A DNA stretch of 37,741 nucleotides from a virus (IMGVR_UViG_2541047834_000001); one strand, 5' to 3'. Counted from the stretch's first letter, positions 2,705 to 35,329 are shown. The notes: generated by a model not told the origin, from the letters alone. Program-made: numbers and translations.

Positions 2705-2953
2705 TCATGCAGCGTTGCTCACAGGACGATATACACGTTGCTGAACAGGAGGTTTTTTACCCTGGAACTCTGCCGGGCTTGCTGCCTGACGTTCATCAAG
2801 CCAACGCTCAACTTCGTCACGGTTCCATGCGCAGCGTTTGTCGGTGATATACCAGCGTTTAGGAAATTCCCCTGCGCGCTCCATACGGTCGATAGTGCTC
2901 CATGACAGTGGCACCACCGCCAGGAGTTCCTTCTTACCTAATGCACCTTTCAT
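2705..2953 (-). CDS. AlpA-family phage regulatory protein / excisionase (MerR-like HTH)
   Basis: 82 aa; LLAVVPLSWSTIDRMERAGEFPKRWYITDKRCAWNRDEVERWLDER matches the AlpA/Xis pattern. Confidence 0.8.
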   Translation of the reverse strand: MKGALGKKELLAVVPLSWSTIDRMERAGEFPKRWYITDKRCAWNRDEVERWLDERQAASPAEFQGKKPPVQQRVYRPVSNAA

Positions 2954-12949: not shown

Positions 12950-13546
12950 ATGATGCCTGCTGAACCTAAAACCTATAAACGCAAATCAACGCAATTTAAG
13001 CCGCTCACAGCAATGCAGGAGGCTTATTGCCAGTCATACATCAAAACGCCTGAAAACCAGACTCAGGCAGCGATTAATGCAGGATTCTCCCCAAATACAG
13101 CGGCAGTTAAAGCCAGTGTCATGATGCGCGATGAACGCATTCAAAAACGGATTGCCGAGTTGATGGAGGAGCGCAACAAACGAATGCGCGTCAGTGCTGA
13201 TTACGTTCTCATGCGCCTGGTGGAGATCGACCAGATGGACGTGATCGACATCCTCAACGACGATGGGAGCCTTAAGCCAATCCGCGAGTGGCCGAAAATC
13301 TGGCGCACTACGCTTAGCGGCTTTGATCTGTCATCGACCATCATGAACATGAACGAGGATTCGATAGAGACAATCCTCAAAAAAATTAAATGGCCTGACA
13401 AGGTGAAGAACCTCGAACTGATTGGTAAGCACGTCGACGTCAACGCATTCAAAGAACGCCTGGATGTTAATGTGAATGTGACAATTGCTGATCGCATAGC
13501 AGCAGCCAGGAAGCGACTCAAAGAACGTCAGGATGGTAATCAGTGA
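12950..13546 (+). CDS. Terminase small subunit
   Basis: LTAMQEAYCQSYIKTPENQTQAAINAGFSPNTAAVKASVMMRDERIQKRIAELMEE typical of small terminase subunits; coupled (GTGA) to large subunit; in-frame ORF extends to 12872 but that region contains the terminator. Confidence 0.7.
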   Translation: MMPAEPKTYKRKSTQFKPLTAMQEAYCQSYIKTPENQTQAAINAGFSPNTAAVKASVMMRDERIQKRIAELMEERNKRMRVSADYVLMRLVEIDQMDVIDILNDDGSLKPIREWPKIWRTTLSGFDLSSTIMNMNEDSIETILKKIKWPDKVKNLELIGKHVDVNAFKERLDVNVNVTIADRIAAARKRLKERQDGNQ

Positions 13547-15018
13547 CAGATACAGTGTTATCTCCTGAAGAGCAGTTGATCGAGGATATTGCAGGGTTTA
13601 CTCACGATCCGCTTGGTTATGCCCTCTATGCGTTCCCGTGGGGGGAAGAGGGGACTGAACTGGCACATGCCACCGGTCCACGTCAGTGGCAGGCCGATGC
13701 GTTCCGAGAGATACGTGATCACCTGCAGAATCCAGAGACGCGATATCAGCCGCTTATGCTGGCACGCGCTTCTGGTCACGGTATTGGTAAATCCGCATTC
13801 ATCTCAATGCTGATCAACTGGGGCATGTCCACTTGCGAGGATTGTAAGGTCGTGGTGACCGCCAACACCGACAACCAGCTGCGCACCAAGACATGGCCGG
13901 AAATCATCAAATGGTCGAATCTGGCTATCACGAAAGAGTGGTTCACCTGCACCGCCACGGCGATGTACAGCAATGACCCAGGCCACGACAAGCGCTGGCG
14001 AGCTGACGCAATACCGTGGTCTGAGCACAACACAGAGGCGTTCGCCGGGCTGCACAACGAGCGTAAGCGTATCATCGTGGTATTCGATGAAGCATCCAAC
14101 ATTGCCGATCTGGTGTGGGAGGTAGCAGAGGGTGCGCTGACGGACGAAGACACTGAGATTATCTGGGTGGCATTCGGAAACCCTACACGTAACACCGGGC
14201 GTTTCCGCGAATGTTTCCGCAAATATAAACACCGCTGGAAAACTGCGCAGATTGACAGCCGGACGGTGGAAGGCACTAACAAACAGCAGTTGCAGAAATG
14301 GGTTGATGACTACGGGGAAGACAGCGACTTCGTTAAAATCCGTGTGCGCGGCATATTCCCGGATGCATCTGAATTGCAGTTTATCCCTACCGGCCTTACT
14401 GACGAGGCAATGAAACGGGTGGTAACCGCTGCGCAGGTTGCACATGCTCCGGTGATAATCGGCGTTGACCCGGCATACTCCGGCGTTGATGACGCTGTGA
14501 TATACCTGCGGCAGGGGCTGCACAGTAAGGTGCTATGGACTGGTAACAAGACCACCGACGATCTGATTATGGCGAAGCGTATCGCTGACTTTGAAGACCA
14601 GTATCAGGCTGACGCGGTGTTCATCGACTTCGGTTATGGAACCGGTTTGAAGTCAATCGGTGATGGCTGGGGACGTACATGGCAACTTGTTCCGTTCGGC
14701 GGTGCGTCCACTGACCCGCAGATGCTTAACAAGCGTGGGGAGATGTTCAACTCATGTAAGACATGGCTGAGGCTGGGCGGCATGCTGGATGACCAGGAAA
14801 CTGCAGACGACCTGTCGGCGGCAGAGTACAAAGTTCGTGTGGACGGTAAAATCGTTATCGAACCGAAGGAAGATATCAAAGAGCGTCTTGGGCGTTCTCC
14901 TGGTAAAGGCGATGCGCTACTGCTGACGTTTGCTTTCCCGGTCTCGAAACGCATAAATATACCAGGACAGCAAAGCCAGCAGGGAAGGGCCATAACGGAT
15001 TATGACCCTTATGCTTAA
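13543..15018 (+). CDS. Terminase large subunit
   Basis: 491 aa; Walker A-like ARASGHGIGKS, acidic VVFDEASN motif, C-terminal nuclease-like region. Confidence 0.85.
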   Translation: MTDTVLSPEEQLIEDIAGFTHDPLGYALYAFPWGEEGTELAHATGPRQWQADAFREIRDHLQNPETRYQPLMLARASGHGIGKSAFISMLINWGMSTCEDCKVVVTANTDNQLRTKTWPEIIKWSNLAITKEWFTCTATAMYSNDPGHDKRWRADAIPWSEHNTEAFAGLHNERKRIIVVFDEASNIADLVWEVAEGALTDEDTEIIWVAFGNPTRNTGRFRECFRKYKHRWKTAQIDSRTVEGTNKQQLQKWVDDYGEDSDFVKIRVRGIFPDASELQFIPTGLTDEAMKRVVTAAQVAHAPVIIGVDPAYSGVDDAVIYLRQGLHSKVLWTGNKTTDDLIMAKRIADFEDQYQADAVFIDFGYGTGLKSIGDGWGRTWQLVPFGGASTDPQMLNKRGEMFNSCKTWLRLGGMLDDQETADDLSAAEYKVRVDGKIVIEPKEDIKERLGRSPGKGDALLLTFAFPVSKRINIPGQQSQQGRAITDYDPYA

Positions 15019-15069
15019 TCCGCTGGTGGGGATAATGTCGTTGATATCCTCTGGTGAGGATAAAACAAA

Positions 15070-15095
15070 GCCAGCTCATAGGCTGGCTGTTTGTG
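15070..15095. terminator. Bidirectional terminator between convergent terminase and minus-strand gene
   Basis: GCCAGC-TCATAG-GCTGGC hairpin flanked by AAAACAAA and TGTTTGT. Confidence 0.5.
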
Positions 15096-15104
15096 ACATG
15101 CCAC
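15093..15104. promoter_or_regulatory. Near-palindrome GTGACATGCCAC (copy 2)
   Basis: Adjacent to bidirectional terminator 15070-15095, just 3' of minus-strand gene. Confidence 0.4.
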
Positions 15105-15108
15105 GGTG

Positions 15109-15483
15109 TTATTGCTCGCTTAACTTCTGCTTCAGCAAGTAACCTTCGAGCATCCAGATTTTGTTTACAGCATTCTGCCGGGCAATCTTCCGACCAATTT
15201 CTGCATCAAAGTTTTCCGGGCTTGCACAGGCACTCTCTCCGGTGACGGTGAAGCCATTCTTCAGCACCAGTACGCAGAAAGTGAGAAGGTGCAGAGCATC
15301 AGGGGTGGCTTCGACATAAGGCTCCGGATTATAAATAAGGTCATCTTCTTTAGCCTGGTGGTCACCCTGCGCAGCAGTGAAAAAATGCTCACTGCAAATG
15401 AGGCCTTCAATTTTCTCGGGTGTTACACGCGGTGCCGTTTTGCCTTTCTCAACGATTTCTTTTTCGATTTGCTGGTCGTTCAT
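15109..15483 (-). CDS. Hypothetical phage protein (124 aa); possibly N4 gp49 / Sf6 gp66-like
   Basis: Clean minus-strand ORF co-oriented with the tRNA; family assignment tentative. Confidence 0.55.
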   Translation of the reverse strand: MNDQQIEKEIVEKGKTAPRVTPEKIEGLICSEHFFTAAQGDHQAKEDDLIYNPEPYVEATPDALHLLTFCVLVLKNGFTVTGESACASPENFDAEIGRKIARQNAVNKIWMLEGYLLKQKLSEQ

Positions 15484-15681
15484 AATCTCACCTTAAAAAA
15501 ATGCCCGGCGAACCGGGCGAACTGGAAGCAATGAGTTATGCCTTCCGTGGCTGTACGGGTTTACAGCATGAAGTCATCGCAATGGCGTCCTGCTGTAAAA
15601 AGGGCGGTGATAGTCCTTCAAGGGAAACTATCACCGCCAAGCACCTGGAACTTCTGGCATCACGGTCCTTAGGCGTGATTC

Positions 15682-15758
15682 TGGCGTGGCATGCAGGATT
15701 CGAACCTGCGACCAACCGCTTAGAAGGCGGTTGCTCTGTCCAACTGAGCTAATGCCAC
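15682..15758 (-). tRNA. tRNA-Arg (anticodon UCU, reads AGA)
   Basis: 77-nt cloverleaf on minus strand: acceptor GTGGCAT/ATGCCAC, D-stem GCTC/GAGC, anticodon stem ACCGC/GCGGT with loop CTTCTAA, T-arm GCAGG-TTCGAAT-CCTGC, discriminator G, encoded CCA. Confidence 0.9.
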
Positions 15759-15779
15759 AACGCTGAGAGCACTTAGCCT

Positions 15780-16010
15780 GTTAAGGCGCCACACTTTGTC
15801 GCGGCTCCATAAATGCTCTCATCGTTGTACCCTCGTCTCTTCCGAGGCGTCACACCGAATCGCCAGGATGGTGAGTCCTCGGTCCGACGATATGAACGGG
15901 GCTTGCACATTCCGGCTACCTGGTTCGTTTGCCCGAGCAAGGGAGGGTGCCCCTTAAACGTATCCAGACCGCTATCGGCGCATGTGCCATACGCCGTACT
16001 GCTCAAAATA
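15780..16010 (-). other. GC-rich hairpin-dense noncoding region 5' of the tRNA (candidate structured RNA / leader)
   Basis: About 230 nt with several inverted repeats (e.g. CCGAGG...CCTCGG, GAGAGCA...TGCTCTC); overlapping ORFs on both strands look non-protein-like. Confidence 0.3.
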
Positions 16011-16078
16011 AAAGCTCACTCCACCTGTTCAATTTAACGACAAGCCAGTCAGGTTAATAACCGGAATGAACCCTTTGC

Positions 16079-16093
16079 TTACCTGAAAGGTAA
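16079..16093. promoter_or_regulatory. Operator-like palindrome TTACC-TGAAA-GGTAAT between tRNA cassette and portal operon
   Basis: Perfect half-sites in a divergent intergenic region. Confidence 0.5.
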
Positions 16094-16183
16094 TAATTTG
16101 TGCGTTAAATGTCAACTATCTACGATAAATAAATCATATGTGGTTAAATTGGTAATAATTTAATTGCGTACGGAGTCATTGAT

Positions 16184-16390
16184 ATGTGCATGGGGAGCTC
16201 ACCATCAGTGCCTGCAACACCAGAAGTTCAGGTAGCACCACAGGAGCAGGATGCCGCCGTTGTTGATGCCCGCGACGAAGAAACACGTCGCCGTCGCGCT
16301 GCTGCTGGTCGTAGTTCTACGCTGCTTACCGGTTCTCAGGGCGACACATCAACCGCTAATACCAGCGGTAAAACGCTGCTTGGTCAGTAA
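16184..16390 (+). CDS. Hypothetical small protein (68 aa) preceding portal
   Basis: ATG preceded by GGAGTCATTGA, the same RBS context as the portal gene. Confidence 0.45.
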   Translation: MCMGSSPSVPATPEVQVAPQEQDAAVVDARDEETRRRRAAAGRSSTLLTGSQGDTSTANTSGKTLLGQ

Positions 16391-16404
16391 CCGGAGTCAT
16401 TGAA

Positions 16405-18084
16405 ATGGCGGAAACAACTAAAGAGCGATTGAACAAACAGTTCGCACAACTTGAAAGCGAGCGTCAGTCGTTCGAGCCGCACTGGCGCGAGTTGAGTGAT
16501 TACATCAACCCGCGTGGTTCCCGCTTTCTGACTTCTGAGGTCAACCGTAACGATCGACGGAATACACGCATTATTGATTCGACCGGGACTATGGCGGCGC
16601 GCACTCTCGCCAGCGGCATGATGTCAGGCATCACAAGCCCCGCGCGTCCGTGGTTTCGCCTGGCTACGCCAGATCCTGAAATGATGGATTATGGCCCTGT
16701 TAAGTTGTGGCTTGAGGCGGTGCAGAACCGCATGAACGATATGTTCAATAAGTCGAATCTCTATCAGTCGCTGCCGCAGTTATACGGAAGCCTCGGCACA
16801 TACAGCACTGGTGCAATGGCGGTGCTGGAGGATGACGAGGACATCATTCGCACAATGCCATTCCCTATAGGCAGTTACTACCTGGCTAACTCACCTCGTG
16901 GCAGTGTGGACACCTGTTTTCGCAAGTTCTCTATGACTGTTCGTCAGCTTGTTCAGGAGTTCGGGCTAAATAACGTCAGCGAATCCGTAAAAAGCATGTG
17001 GGAAAGCGGCACCTACGAGAAGTGGATTGAAGTGATGCATTCGGTTTACCCGAACATTGACCGCGATACATCGAAGCTGGATAGCAAGAACAAGCCATTC
17101 AAATCGGTTTATTACGAGGTTGGTGGCGATAACGACAAGTTGTTGCGTGAGTCCGGATTCGATGAGTTTCCAATTATGGCTCCGCGCTGGGAAGTTAACG
17201 GCGAAGATGTTTATGGATCATCATGCCCTGGTATGCTGGCGCTTGGACCTGTTAAGGCATTGCAGCTTCTCCAGAAGCGCAAGTCGCAGTTGATTGATAA
17301 AGCCACCAATCCGCCGATGGTTGCTCCGACTTCCCTCAAGAATCAGCGCGCCTCCCTTCTTCCTGGCGACATCACGTATATCGATCAGATTACTGGTCAG
17401 GATGGTTTCAGGCCTGCTTATCTGGTTAACCCCAGTACAGCAGATCTGGTAGCAGACATTCAGGACACCCGCCAAATCATTAACAGCGCCTACTTTGTCG
17501 ATCTGTTCATGATGTTGCAGAACATCAATACCCGCTCGATGCCTGTTGAAGCAGTGATCGAAATGAAAGAAGAAAAGCTTCTGATGTTGGGGCCAGTTCT
17601 GGAGCGTCTGAACGACGAATGTCTTAATCCTCTCATTGACCGCACTTTCTCGATGATGGTGCGTAAAAACATGTTGCCGCCACCGCCTGACGCGATGGAA
17701 GGCATGCCCCTGAAGGTCGAATACATTTCCGTCATGGCTCAGGCGCAGAAGTCTATCGGCCTGTCCAGTCTGGCGTCCACGGTTAACTTCATTGGTCAAC
17801 TTGCGCAAGCGAAACCAGAAGCTCTCGACAAACTCAACGTTGATCAGGCGATCGATGCATTCGCTGATATGTCCGGAGTGTCTCCAACCGTCATTGTTCC
17901 GCAGGAACAGGTTGAGCAGGCTCGCCAGCAACGGGCACAGCAACAACAGCAGCAACAAATGATGGCGATGGGGATGGCGGCGGCACAGGGTGCCAAGACG
18001 CTAAGCGAAGCTAAAACTTCGGAGCCGAGTGTTTTGTCAGCTATGGCGAATGCAGTTAGTGGTCAGGGTGGGCAATCACAATGA
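16405..18084 (+). CDS. Portal (head-tail connector) protein, T7 gp8-like
   Basis: 559 aa; Gln/Ala/Met-rich C-terminus (RQQRAQQQQQQQMMAMGMAAAQGA) like T7-type portals; downstream of terminase. Confidence 0.8.
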   Translation: MAETTKERLNKQFAQLESERQSFEPHWRELSDYINPRGSRFLTSEVNRNDRRNTRIIDSTGTMAARTLASGMMSGITSPARPWFRLATPDPEMMDYGPVKLWLEAVQNRMNDMFNKSNLYQSLPQLYGSLGTYSTGAMAVLEDDEDIIRTMPFPIGSYYLANSPRGSVDTCFRKFSMTVRQLVQEFGLNNVSESVKSMWESGTYEKWIEVMHSVYPNIDRDTSKLDSKNKPFKSVYYEVGGDNDKLLRESGFDEFPIMAPRWEVNGEDVYGSSCPGMLALGPVKALQLLQKRKSQLIDKATNPPMVAPTSLKNQRASLLPGDITYIDQITGQDGFRPAYLVNPSTADLVADIQDTRQIINSAYFVDLFMMLQNINTRSMPVEAVIEMKEEKLLMLGPVLERLNDECLNPLIDRTFSMMVRKNMLPPPPDAMEGMPLKVEYISVMAQAQKSIGLSSLASTVNFIGQLAQAKPEALDKLNVDQAIDAFADMSGVSPTVIVPQEQVEQARQQRAQQQQQQQMMAMGMAAAQGAKTLSEAKTSEPSVLSAMANAVSGQGGQSQ

Positions 18085-33139: not shown

Positions 33140-35329
33140 ATGACGGTCTCAACCGAAGTTGACCACAACGAATACACCGGTAACGGCGTTACGACATCAT
33201 TTCCGTATACCTTCCGTATTTTCAAAAAAACCGACCTGGTTGTTCAGGTGTCTGACCTGAACGGGAACGTAACAGAATTGGTTCTGGATACCGGTTATAA
33301 GGTAACTGGAGCGGGCACTTATAGTGGCGGTGAAGTGGTTCTCCCGTCGCCGCTTGCTGCTGGATGGCGAATTACGATAGAGCGTGTGCTTGATGTGGTG
33401 CAGGAGACTGATCTTCGCAATCAGGGAAAATTTTTCCCCGAAGTTCATGAGGATGCATTTGACTACCTGACGATGCTGATCCAGCGATGTTTCGGGTGGT
33501 TCAGACGTGCATTGATGAAACCATCTTTGCTTGCAAAATATTACGATGCAAAGCAAAACAGAATTTCTAACCTTGCAGATCCATCACTTGAGCAGGACGC
33601 TGTAAATAATCGCTCAATGCGTAATTATGTCGATGCTGCAATCGCCGGGGTTGTTGGTGGTTTTGGTTGGTTTATACCGTCAGGAAGCGGGGCAAGACAA
33701 CGAACATTTCAAAGCAAAATGAGGGATATAATTTCTCCTTGTGATTACGAAGATAATATTTTTATGATTAAGGAGTTGATATCCAAAGGCAAAAATGCCG
33801 CTGTTTTTAACTCATATTATACTTTTGTTATTACTGTTGGCGAATGGGGTGATTACCCTACACTCAAAGATGCAATCATTGCAGCCCAGTCAATGAGACC
33901 TATGTGGGATGGTGGTAATGCTTTCTGCGAAATAAGAATTAAGACCGGGCATATTATCAACTATCAAATTGAATTCAGTTCAGGTGTTGATTTGTCTTGG
34001 ATTAAAATAACATCAGAAGACTCAGTGGTTTTCTCTGACACTCGTTTGTTTACTAAAATCGTTAGAACGTATTACGAATACAAGTATTTATTTTACATTT
34101 GCGATGCAGCAAAAAGTCCTGTATTTGCTATTCAGATCGAAGAAAATAGAGATGATAGCGATGTTTGTGCATTTATTGTAACTCAAAAAGCTGAACTTAA
34201 TTTCTATCCGTATTCAGGTGCTCGAAAGTTCTACGTTGGAATTCATGGTAGTTTTGGTGCAAAAATTAGTGCATATCATACCGGATGTGCTCCTGATGAG
34301 GAAAGTGTTGCTGCATATATGCCAGAAGGGTATTACGTATGTGATTTTTCTTATAGCAGATACTCTTCCCTGCAACTGGTAAATAATGTCAAGGCATCAA
34401 TGCCTGTAAGCAAGTTTGAACGGTGCACAGAGAGTACGGTTGCGTCAGTTAATTGTATTTATAATGTTAAAGCAGATTTTCAGGGGTCAAGTGCAAGCTA
34501 TTGTTATATAGGATGGAATGTAAGAGATGGTTCAAATGTTAATATACGCGACCATAAAACTATACATTGCTCATATCGTGGATTAACCTGCATTCATACA
34601 GCATATGTTGATGCAAGACGACATGACGTTGAAGAAAGTGATGCAGAAACAAGTGGTAAAGTCCTTGAACCAAATATTGAAAAAGGTTTTTATGGATGTG
34701 CACTTGGTGTGCGTATTGATGGTGCGGGTTGCGTTGATGTTGCTGGTAATGATATGCGCAATTGTGGAACAGCCGTTAATGCAGACACTGGTGCTGTTAT
34801 TTCAGGAAAGGCTGTAGATATCTCAGGGGCTGAGCTGGGATTTGATTGCCATGCAGGAGCATCTGTTAATTTTCCAAGGCTATGGGGTACAGATATAAAA
34901 AAATTAATGCACCTCCAAGATGGTGTAAGGTTTAACTCTAATATTTGTCATGTATTTGGTGCAAATCCCACAAAAGATATTAGATGGATTGATGTAGAGA
35001 GATCTGAAGCTTCTTTTATGAATGCAACGCTGGATGCAGATTCAGGATTTATTGCCGACTGTGGTAGTAGGATAACCATTGAAGGAAGTAAAGTTAAAAA
35101 CCAAACAATAAGAAGTTTTTTTGGATCATATGTGGCTATAAATAATACTGTTGCTGACAGAACTTATTCAGATATAGCCGATGTTCCGCAGTTGACTATT
35201 AGTGGAGGATCTTTTATTTCTGCTACAGGATATTCTAATTCTGACTCCAGCCCTCTGAGGTTGAGCACAACACGAAATACACTTGGCGTTGGAGGAGCTA
35301 TATTTTCAACCAATGGGGAAGTTTCATGA
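33140..35329 (+). CDS. Tail fibre / tailspike protein (conserved N-terminal adaptor, variable AT-rich distal domain)
   Basis: 729 aa; N-terminus (NEYTGNGVTTSFPYTF...NRISNLADPSLEQDAVNNRSMRNY) resembles podovirus tail-fibre anchors; distal portion about 35% GC. Confidence 0.75.
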   Translation: MTVSTEVDHNEYTGNGVTTSFPYTFRIFKKTDLVVQVSDLNGNVTELVLDTGYKVTGAGTYSGGEVVLPSPLAAGWRITIERVLDVVQETDLRNQGKFFPEVHEDAFDYLTMLIQRCFGWFRRALMKPSLLAKYYDAKQNRISNLADPSLEQDAVNNRSMRNYVDAAIAGVVGGFGWFIPSGSGARQRTFQSKMRDIISPCDYEDNIFMIKELISKGKNAAVFNSYYTFVITVGEWGDYPTLKDAIIAAQSMRPMWDGGNAFCEIRIKTGHIINYQIEFSSGVDLSWIKITSEDSVVFSDTRLFTKIVRTYYEYKYLFYICDAAKSPVFAIQIEENRDDSDVCAFIVTQKAELNFYPYSGARKFYVGIHGSFGAKISAYHTGCAPDEESVAAYMPEGYYVCDFSYSRYSSLQLVNNVKASMPVSKFERCTESTVASVNCIYNVKADFQGSSASYCYIGWNVRDGSNVNIRDHKTIHCSYRGLTCIHTAYVDARRHDVEESDAETSGKVLEPNIEKGFYGCALGVRIDGAGCVDVAGNDMRNCGTAVNADTGAVISGKAVDISGAELGFDCHAGASVNFPRLWGTDIKKLMHLQDGVRFNSNICHVFGANPTKDIRWIDVERSEASFMNATLDADSGFIADCGSRITIEGSKVKNQTIRSFFGSYVAINNTVADRTYSDIADVPQLTISGGSFISATGYSNSDSSPLRLSTTRNTLGVGGAIFSTNGEVS

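Follow-up and report, generated by a model that had tools for sequence, protein, structure and literature searches.

What is a lone tRNA gene doing between the terminase and portal genes of a temperate phage, on the strand opposite to both? The window analysed here, i.e. the whole 37.7-kb stretch of viral DNA (IMGVR_UViG_2541047834_000001), belongs to an epsilon15/phiV10-like podovirus of the genus Uetakevirus, and the region concerned is 96–98% identical by BLAST to phiV10, TL-2011b, the O157 typing phages 9 and 10, and others. The genes for the terminase large subunit (13543–15018) and the portal protein (16405–18084), as well as a small ORF on the portal side (16184–16390), lie on the plus strand, whereas the gene for tRNA-Arg(UCU) lies on the minus strand at 15682–15758. 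On the portal side, the tRNA is separated from the next gene by 425 nt, which are unannotated in every relative and whose length is preserved in Salmonella phage SPN9TCW.

The tRNA gene and its minus-strand unit

Over the whole window, ARAGORN called exactly one tRNA (Arg, anticodon tct, 15682–15758, minus strand), and the Rfam tRNA model RF00005 matched positions 15685–15758 with 73.3 bits (gathering score 29; E = 2.3e-14). The 5' part of the gene reads GTGGCAT TA GCTC AGTTGGACA GAGC A ACCGC CTTCTAA GCGGT and the 3' part TGGTC GCAGG TTCGAAT CCTGC ATGCCAC G CCA, giving a 7-bp acceptor stem, a 7-nt anticodon loop (CUUCUAA), a discriminator G and an encoded CCA. The identity elements of arginine tRNAs are A20 and C35; A20 is present in the D-loop AGUUGGACA, and the UCU anticodon lies in the 7-nt loop. 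The two programs and this direct reading agree with the 77-nt minus-strand tRNA, its CTTCTAA loop and its CCA end as described in the earlier note. The gene is itself known and ordinary, and no new find: it is annotated already in KP869107, MN187550, SPN9TCW and SPC32H. The phiV10 record has no tRNA feature and carries instead an antisense ORF of 83 aa (15501–15752, plus strand), listed in the phiV10 RefSeq record as the hypothetical protein PhiV10p04, which is almost certainly a spurious gene call.

Along the minus strand, the unit consists of a promoter overlapped by a palindromic operator, an untranslated leader of about 320 nt, the tRNA, two terminator-like hairpins (T1 and T2) and a gp49-family gene. 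The putative promoter, as read from the sequence, has the −35 hexamer TTGACA (16110–16115) and the weak −10 hexamer TACCTT (16087–16092, of the form TAnnnT). The arrangement TTGACA-17 nt-TACCTT is kept in E. coli and Salmonella relatives and in many IMG/VR copies; a stricter promoter scan of the window did not flag the promoter with this −10 hexamer. The palindrome TTACC-TTTC-GGTAA (16079–16093) covers the −10 hexamer and the start site, and the same palindrome (ATATTACCTTTTAGGTA) is annotated in the epsilon15 record as a repressor-binding site.

An exact 11-nt direct repeat, AAATTATTACC, was observed on the minus strand at 16089–16099 and 16151–16161 (spacing 62 nt). One copy overlaps the −10 hexamer and the palindrome, and the other lies upstream in an AT-rich stretch that is 100% conserved; the latter may be a second operator or a site shared with a divergent promoter on the portal side. 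Downstream of the start site, the minimum-free-energy fold contains a long, genus-specific 5' hairpin (16010–16075, minus strand), the homologue of which is annotated in epsilon15 as an RNase III processing site. This hairpin is missing from SPN9TCW.

Beyond the tRNA, T1 (15603–15638, minus strand) has a 14-bp stem followed by CUUUUU, and T2 (15503–15518, minus strand) has the form GCCCGG-UUCG-CCGGGC followed by AUUUUUUU (U7). T2 ends 3 nt ahead of the Shine-Dalgarno sequence of a 124-aa gene (15109–15483, minus strand), and a similar layout of a hairpin before a gene is annotated in epsilon15 as a rho-independent terminator. The 124-aa product belongs to the Phage_gp49_66 family (PF13876; N4 Gp49/Sf6 gp66), with 118.1 bits against a Pfam gathering score of 27 (E = 2.4e-34), and its counterpart in RefSeq prophages is annotated as a Gp49 family protein. 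No promoter was detected between T1 and the gp49-like gene, which, being placed behind T1 and T2, could therefore be expressed only by read-through. The tRNA had been placed in a cassette with this 124-aa gene; the gene is indeed downstream on the same strand, although that description missed the two terminator-like hairpins and the leader of about 320 nt. Judged by this layout, the tRNA appears to be carried, as one item of cargo, by a minus-strand unit that has been inserted into the terminase–portal gap.

A further hairpin, T3 (15069–15088), lies in the convergent interval between the terminase and gp49-like genes and is a plus-strand terminator in the phiV10 annotation. Late transcription running from terminase to portal must cross T3 and the whole antisense cassette, which implies either a separate promoter near 16100–16183 or read-through on the plus strand as well.

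A structured leader core with a pseudoknot

Homologues of the leader were retrieved from IMG/VR with an invariant 19-mer, GGTAGCCGGAATGTGCAAG, and with a second, independent anchor (at least 120 contigs each). The 19-mer yielded 108 distinct versions among at least 127 loci. Both anchors pooled gave at least 125 true distinct versions, i.e. 128 minus three chance matches of the second anchor, which were left out (loci L130, L136, and L177).

The conserved core occupies positions 15824–15999 of the minus strand (142.8 bits, E = 2e-39 with covariance model R1). From its 5' end, it comprises helix P1 (15996–15989/15983–15976), helix P2 (15972–15964/15923–15915), two variable hairpins, P3 and P4, helix P5 (15879–15876/15868–15865), and helix P6 (15847–15843/15835–15831), all on the minus strand. 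A pseudoknot (15873–15870/15856–15853, minus strand) joins the CACC of the P5 loop to a downstream GGUG. In an all-against-all covariation scan, base pairs were exchanged in P1 (G:C in 70 sequences, A:U in 54), P2 (C:G 82, U:A 41), P5 (A:U 65, C:G 26, U:G 32), the pseudoknot (C:G 104, A:U 21), and P6 (U:A 87, C:G 26). Among 65 diverse copies (alignment A3), 94.6% of the cells were paired, against 26–48% when the partners were slid. In these copies, 121 cells were doubly changed, against 41 ± 4 in shuffled alignments (none of the 500 shuffles reached the observed value), and 12 pairs showed changes on both sides. The leader core thus folds into four helices and an H-type pseudoknot, each of them backed by compensatory changes. 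Moreover, the leader fold has a z-score of −5.6 relative to shuffled sequence, and alignment of this stretch to SPN9TCW showed invariant blocks interleaved with variable, indel-rich ones.

A single-stranded segment of the core, CCGGAAUGUGCAAG (15902–15915, minus strand), is nearly invariant. It was unchanged in 113 of the 128 distinct sequences that the two anchors gave together; the invariant 19-mer itself had retrieved about half of the loci behind this count. The near-invariance also holds in copies that were not selected for the segment. Nearly all other variation falls on its 5' side. The window contains one copy, for a chance expectation of 0.02.

Two additional pairings were considered and rejected. 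A second pseudoknot between GCAC of the P1 loop and GUGC of the invariant segment, which was the long-range choice of RNAalifold, was dropped because the local P1 hairpin shows compensatory changes and two natural GUGC variants are uncompensated. A closing helix between the 5'-flanking GUAC and the 3' flank was inconsistent among copies.

Between the core and the tRNA lies a 3' domain (15759–15823, minus strand) that abuts the 5' end of the tRNA and has a candidate closing helix, CGAUGAGAGCA/UGCUCUCAGCG, recognized by eye. Conservation of this domain runs right up to the base that adjoins the tRNA in SPN9TCW, and equally far in lambdoid copies without a tRNA; P1-type copies lack the domain. 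In SPN9TCW (L003, about 2785–2870, minus strand), the domain carries a 57-nt insertion, beside which CTGGTTCAATTCCAG forms a perfect T-arm-like hairpin followed by ...CCCA. The stretch resembles the 3' portion of a tRNA, or else an att-site remnant; ARAGORN made no tRNA call on it.

It is very improbable that the leader is a mere spacer or precursor conserved through recent kinship, or that it encodes the 77-aa ORF with a TTG start at 15773–16006 (minus strand), even if some records place hypothetical proteins on the homologous stretch: homologues with 72–87% identity and compensatory base-pair changes occur in unrelated phage backbones, and the fold z-score also speaks against a spacer. As for a small protein, the spacing between anchors fell into the three frames 22/20/23 and 20/35/10 times, i.e. 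with no conserved frame, and the 77-aa ORF had no Pfam match; this reading was therefore ruled out.

Distribution and genomic contexts of the element

Rfam 15 gave no match to the leader over 15759–16100, even at E ≤ 10. In a permissive scan of 15000–16450, only the tRNA was found, besides matches to RyhB, DicF, and mir-36 at E > 1, which fell on terminator hairpins and were regarded as chance. No account of the element was found in the literature searched, a search outside which key older papers fell. By BLAST, the approximately 240 nt adjoining the tRNA recur in lambdoid phages (cdtI, mEp460, 2H10, and Stx2c, Stx2a, and Stx2k phages), in P1, P7, D6, SJ46, and RCS47, and in phages of Klebsiella, Enterobacter, and Stenotrophomonas. 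Of 5,426 complete E. coli genomes, 2,153 (about 40%) contain the core, at 2,366 chromosomal and 554 plasmid places, and RefSeq annotation was absent beneath 29 of 30 sampled matches, the remaining one being labelled "hypothetical protein". Overall, the leader is a robust and very common structured RNA that is apparently undescribed. Among the complete genomes, only that of E. coli GPEC1405, isolated from chicken, matched the core of the window at 100% (NZ_CM142774.1, 4566935–4567110); this strain is probably where the window comes from, or else is very closely related to its origin.

A contig scan with a 15-base pattern over 596 Gb returned mostly chance matches and sampled the breadth outside Enterobacterales poorly; those surviving under the covariance model came only from Kosakonia sacchari, Escherichia whittamii, and, weakly, a betaproteobacterial MAG from Lake Baikal (L251, 983–1118; 22 bits, E = 4.5e-4). 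The Stenotrophomonas phages BUCT708 and BUCT709 matched by BLAST at 76–80% over about 100 nt. The MAG and Stenotrophomonas matches, weak yet significant and from outside Enterobacterales, hint at a host range of the leader family wider than that sampled.

Three settings were distinguished, and in all of them the element follows a repressor-controlled early promoter; in most loci, the invariant 19-mer has a promoter 100–220 nt on its upstream side. Lambdoid phages show, in succession, a cI-type repressor gene followed by its terminator, a strong promoter carrying an operator palindrome, the element, which starts a few tens of nt downstream of the promoter, a strong terminator, and the genes for YfdP, YfdQ, and a 5'-nucleotidase. 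The arrangement is seen in detail in cdtI; cdtI, mEp460, and phiSTEC1575-Stx2k all show the repressor, pL, the element, and YfdP/YfdQ/nucleotidase. The upstream cI-like repressors are of several immunity types. Judging by annotation only, no N gene is present in the lambdoid operons that carry the element, and the first ORF in cdtI had no Pfam match.

In P1-like phages, the element belongs to the C1-repressed ban operon: it begins 15 nt past tRNA-Ile2, precedes ban, and lies about 2.4 kb from the annotated promoter in P1. Upstream of it, the P1 operon also contains a dicF-like region, tRNA-Asn, and tRNA-Thr (L004, 269–370 and 826–979), so that several non-coding RNAs share one repressor-controlled early operon.

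In Uetakevirus-like phages, the element occupies the gap between terminase and portal, behind TTGACA-17-TACCTT with the palindrome TTACC-N4-GGTAA at the −10 hexamer and start site. The cargo varies, with tRNA-Arg and the gp49-like gene in the window and other small ORFs without a tRNA elsewhere; what stays constant is the element, the tRNA being one of its cargoes. Among the first 127 loci examined, a tRNA directly flanks the element in 55, either tRNA-Ile2 at a distance of 15 nt or an abutting tRNA-Arg.

Epsilon15 has lost most of this module. Its remnant (L006, 2048–2153) consists of P1 and half of P2 (34 bits with model R1), with no tRNA, and is fused to the 3' half of T1 at the junction ...GGGTTCCCTTGATGCT|GACCACCGTC... 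In SPN9TCW, a 13-nt repeat, TTCCCTTGATGCT, is found in both the P3 region of the element and the loop of T1, and it coincides with the epsilon15 junction. This points to a deletion between short repeats, in which the tRNA, half of T1, and everything of the element beyond the remnant were lost. Since epsilon15 is viable after this loss, the module is dispensable, i.e. accessory.

Possible functions of the leader and of the tRNA

Going solely by position, our best guess is that the leader is a cis-acting read-through device comparable to the put RNAs of HK022 and HK639, which bind the zinc-binding domain of the beta-prime subunit of RNA polymerase and cause read-through in cis. This reading is favoured because the element is promoter-proximal, precedes terminators that stand before the first genes, occurs in operons with no N, and is portable between unrelated phages, a portability that would imply dependence on host machinery only. 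In the window, removal of the phage repressor would turn the unit on, and the leader would act in cis on the transcribing RNA polymerase, letting it pass terminators and avoid Rho on a long untranslated RNA. The tRNA would be released by RNase P and 3' trimming, and read-through would express it together with the gp49-like gene behind T1 and T2. The tRNA would then decode AGA codons, which the phage uses about three times as often as the host does and which cluster in the tailspike, in the injection proteins, and in certain early genes. For this explanation as a whole, i.e. a genuine tRNA-Arg carried as cargo of a minus-strand unit headed by a cis-acting read-through leader, we see about as much reason for belief as for doubt.

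The likeness to put is one of position and of limited motifs. Like put in HK022 and HK639, the element lies downstream of a repressor-controlled pL in N-less lambdoid phages and before terminators, and it would need no phage protein, which fits its movement between unrelated phages. HK022 putL, HK639 putL, and the element share the stem I motif ACGGCG...CAUGCGUCG (A-CGGCG...CAUG-CGUCG), with a second helix starting 1–2 nt after stem I. In contrast to put, which is about 70 nt long with two stems, the element has a core of 165–185 nt and a 3' domain, with more helices, a pseudoknot, and the invariant 14-mer; it is also found in P1-like and epsilon15-like phages. Neither HK022 putL nor the putL-like RNA of HK639 was matched by model R1 at E ≤ 10, and a model built from three known put RNAs (R2) did not match the element; membership of the put family was thus ruled out in both directions. 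Residues essential in HK022 put are U28 in the CAUG bulge and the A9–G35 pair (PMC9378689); with HK022 putL numbered so as to reproduce every residue named in that study, the element has the CAUG and the 5' A, and at the position of G35 it has U, A, or C, or the position is absent. The "M3-like RNA" of HK639 showed no resemblance to the element.

Other leader RNAs and phage RNAs were also compared. As in lambda N/nut and rRNA boxA systems, a leader RNA at the start of early or untranslated operons is proposed here to produce a termination-resistant polymerase; unlike in lambda N/nut, no N-like protein is annotated in the operons of the element, and no boxB-type hairpin was seen. The UGCUCU of the element was rejected as a boxA, being only 6 nt long, located within a helix of the 3' domain, and within chance expectation. 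GOLLD and ROOL are structured non-coding RNAs of phages and prophages that are often found beside tRNA genes. The element resembles them in being a structured phage non-coding RNA near tRNA genes; they differ from it in being several hundred nt longer, in occurring mostly in other bacterial groups, and in being represented in Rfam, where the element has no match.

The main alternative is that the leader is a discrete, stable RNA acting in trans. RNase III, cutting within the 5' hairpin, and RNase P, cutting where the tRNA begins, would release it; in P1, 3' processing of tRNA-Ile2 would serve instead. Such an RNA would have a conserved host target, for example sequestering a protein or an RNA or blocking a defence, and the terminators would simply end the unit. 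Several observations point this way: the tRNAs that border the element in 55 of the first 127 loci and would allow it to be processed precisely; the RNase III site annotated in the homologous hairpin of epsilon15; and the near-invariance of the single-stranded 14-mer among phages of several host genera. Moreover, strong terminators commonly come next, and the element would be expressed first from early promoters, a typical place of anti-defence functions.

The terminators themselves were surveyed in 71 distinct contexts (hairpin ΔG ≤ −16 kcal/mol with a U-tract, within 600 nt). Strong ones were found downstream in the sense direction in 45 of the 71, against 5 in the antisense direction and 14 in the upstream 600 nt; no terminator was predicted downstream of the element in L011-type lineages. 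Downstream terminators fit a stand-alone RNA gene ending there equally well. The read-through explanation is further weakened by the L011-type lineages without terminators, by the 2.4 kb that separate the element from the P1 promoter, and by the loss in epsilon15. Read-through beyond T3, if unchecked, would also produce RNA antisense to the terminase genes, which counts against it too. Against a trans-acting RNA, the only evident promoter of the N-less lambdoid early-left operon precedes both the element and a strong terminator, so that some provider of read-through must exist there, and the gp49-like gene of the window is promoterless behind T1 and T2. On balance, we consider a trans-acting RNA possible and unlikely.

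The cis-acting reading can be extended to a broader and more tentative proposal, one that we would sooner doubt than affirm. The element would represent a new class of portable phage RNA that, alone or with host factors only, drives E. coli RNA polymerase through terminators, being the early antiterminator of N-less lambdoid prophages and also serving the P1 ban operon and the moron cassettes of epsilon15-like phages.

The role of the tRNA was addressed through codon usage. In every 1000 codons, the phage has 6.1 AGA and 4.9 AGG; E. coli codon tables give roughly 2 and 1.2, respectively. AGA is absent from the terminase, portal, scaffold, and capsid genes and clusters in the tailspike (14 codons), in two large proteins of internal or injection type (7 and 8), and in certain early genes. 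In a single comparison (z of about 2), AGA reached 6.2 per 1000 in the window and 6.0 in SPN9TCW, which have the tRNA, versus 4.2 in epsilon15, which lacks it; AGG was equal among the three. Compensation of host codon bias, as proposed in the earlier note, is weakly supported: AGA is about 3-fold more frequent than in the host and lower in epsilon15, whereas the neighbouring late genes contain none.

The ORF at the tailspike position (729 aa, 33140–35329, plus strand) contains 14 AGA and 5 AGG codons, and more than one fifth of the AGA total of the phage. This load is consistent with a module derived from a source with a different codon usage.

In other systems, some phages are known to use tRNAs of their own against defences that attack tRNAs. 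Here, the main role of the tRNA could be to replace, or protect against the loss of, host tRNA-Arg(UCU) that has been cleaved, for example by an anticodon nuclease or by a toxin resembling colicin D; the altered stems of the phage tRNA would help it to escape recognition. In favour of this, the differences from E. coli argU are confined to the stems, with loops and arms retained, and the highly expressed late neighbours lack AGA altogether. However, the anticodon loop, which known anticodon nucleases recognize, is identical to that of argU, and the phage contains AGA at about three times the host frequency, and at a higher level than epsilon15, from which the tRNA has been lost; we regard this role as improbable.

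The comparison with argU also bears on the origin of the gene. The two tRNAs are identical at 62 of 77 positions, sharing the anticodon loop, the D-arm (one change), the T-arm, the discriminator G, and the CCA. The 15 differences are concentrated in the acceptor stem (GUGGCAU/AUGCCAC here, GCGCCCU/AGGGCGC in argU) and the anticodon stem (CCGCC/GGCGG here, CGACC/GGUCG in argU), where they are compensatory; the remaining ones lie in the variable loop and at one D-loop base. The distinctness from argU that had been claimed from the sequence thus holds. Copies of the tRNA at ≥99% identity occur in 339 E. coli records; in the one inspected, the chromosomal copy lies within a prophage of the same type, with portal, Gp49, and terminase genes alongside, as expected of a phage-specific gene. 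This prophage location, together with the attP/integrase region of epsilon15, which is about 24 kb from the cassette, agrees with the view that the tRNA is not the integration target. That the gene was captured on a host fragment, or is the remnant of an attachment site, is hardly credible: argU is a common phage integration site, with an integrase gene adjoining it in the K-12-type chromosome retrieved here, but the tRNA is only 80% identical to argU, phage sequence lies on its flanks, the gene is complete with its own upstream unit, and the epsilon15 att/int region is elsewhere.

Taken alone, the tRNA is of little weight, being one more rare-codon tRNA of a temperate phage and annotated in relatives. 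Together with ileZ-argN-argO in Stx phages and tRNA-Asn, tRNA-Thr, and tRNA-Ile2 in P1, it belongs to the tRNAs of temperate coliphages that read rare codons (AGA, AUA) and lie inside phage operons, and it adjoins the same leader element as the tRNA-Ile2 of P1; unlike these, it is a single tRNA in a unit of its own, which runs counter to the late genes on either side.

The leader outweighs it: it has no Rfam family, and it is carried by about 40% of complete E. coli genomes as well as by P1-like plasmid prophages and Stx-converting phages. How the early-left operon is expressed in N-less lambdoid phages was left as an open point in 2025 (PMC12315714), and if the element is the read-through device of these phages, it would answer the point raised there. 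It would then be a second, structurally different class among the very few RNAs that directly reprogram RNA polymerase, as well as a compact, portable part for synthetic operons. If it acts in trans instead, a target is still to be found for this very common early transcript of phages and its invariant single strand of 14 nt.
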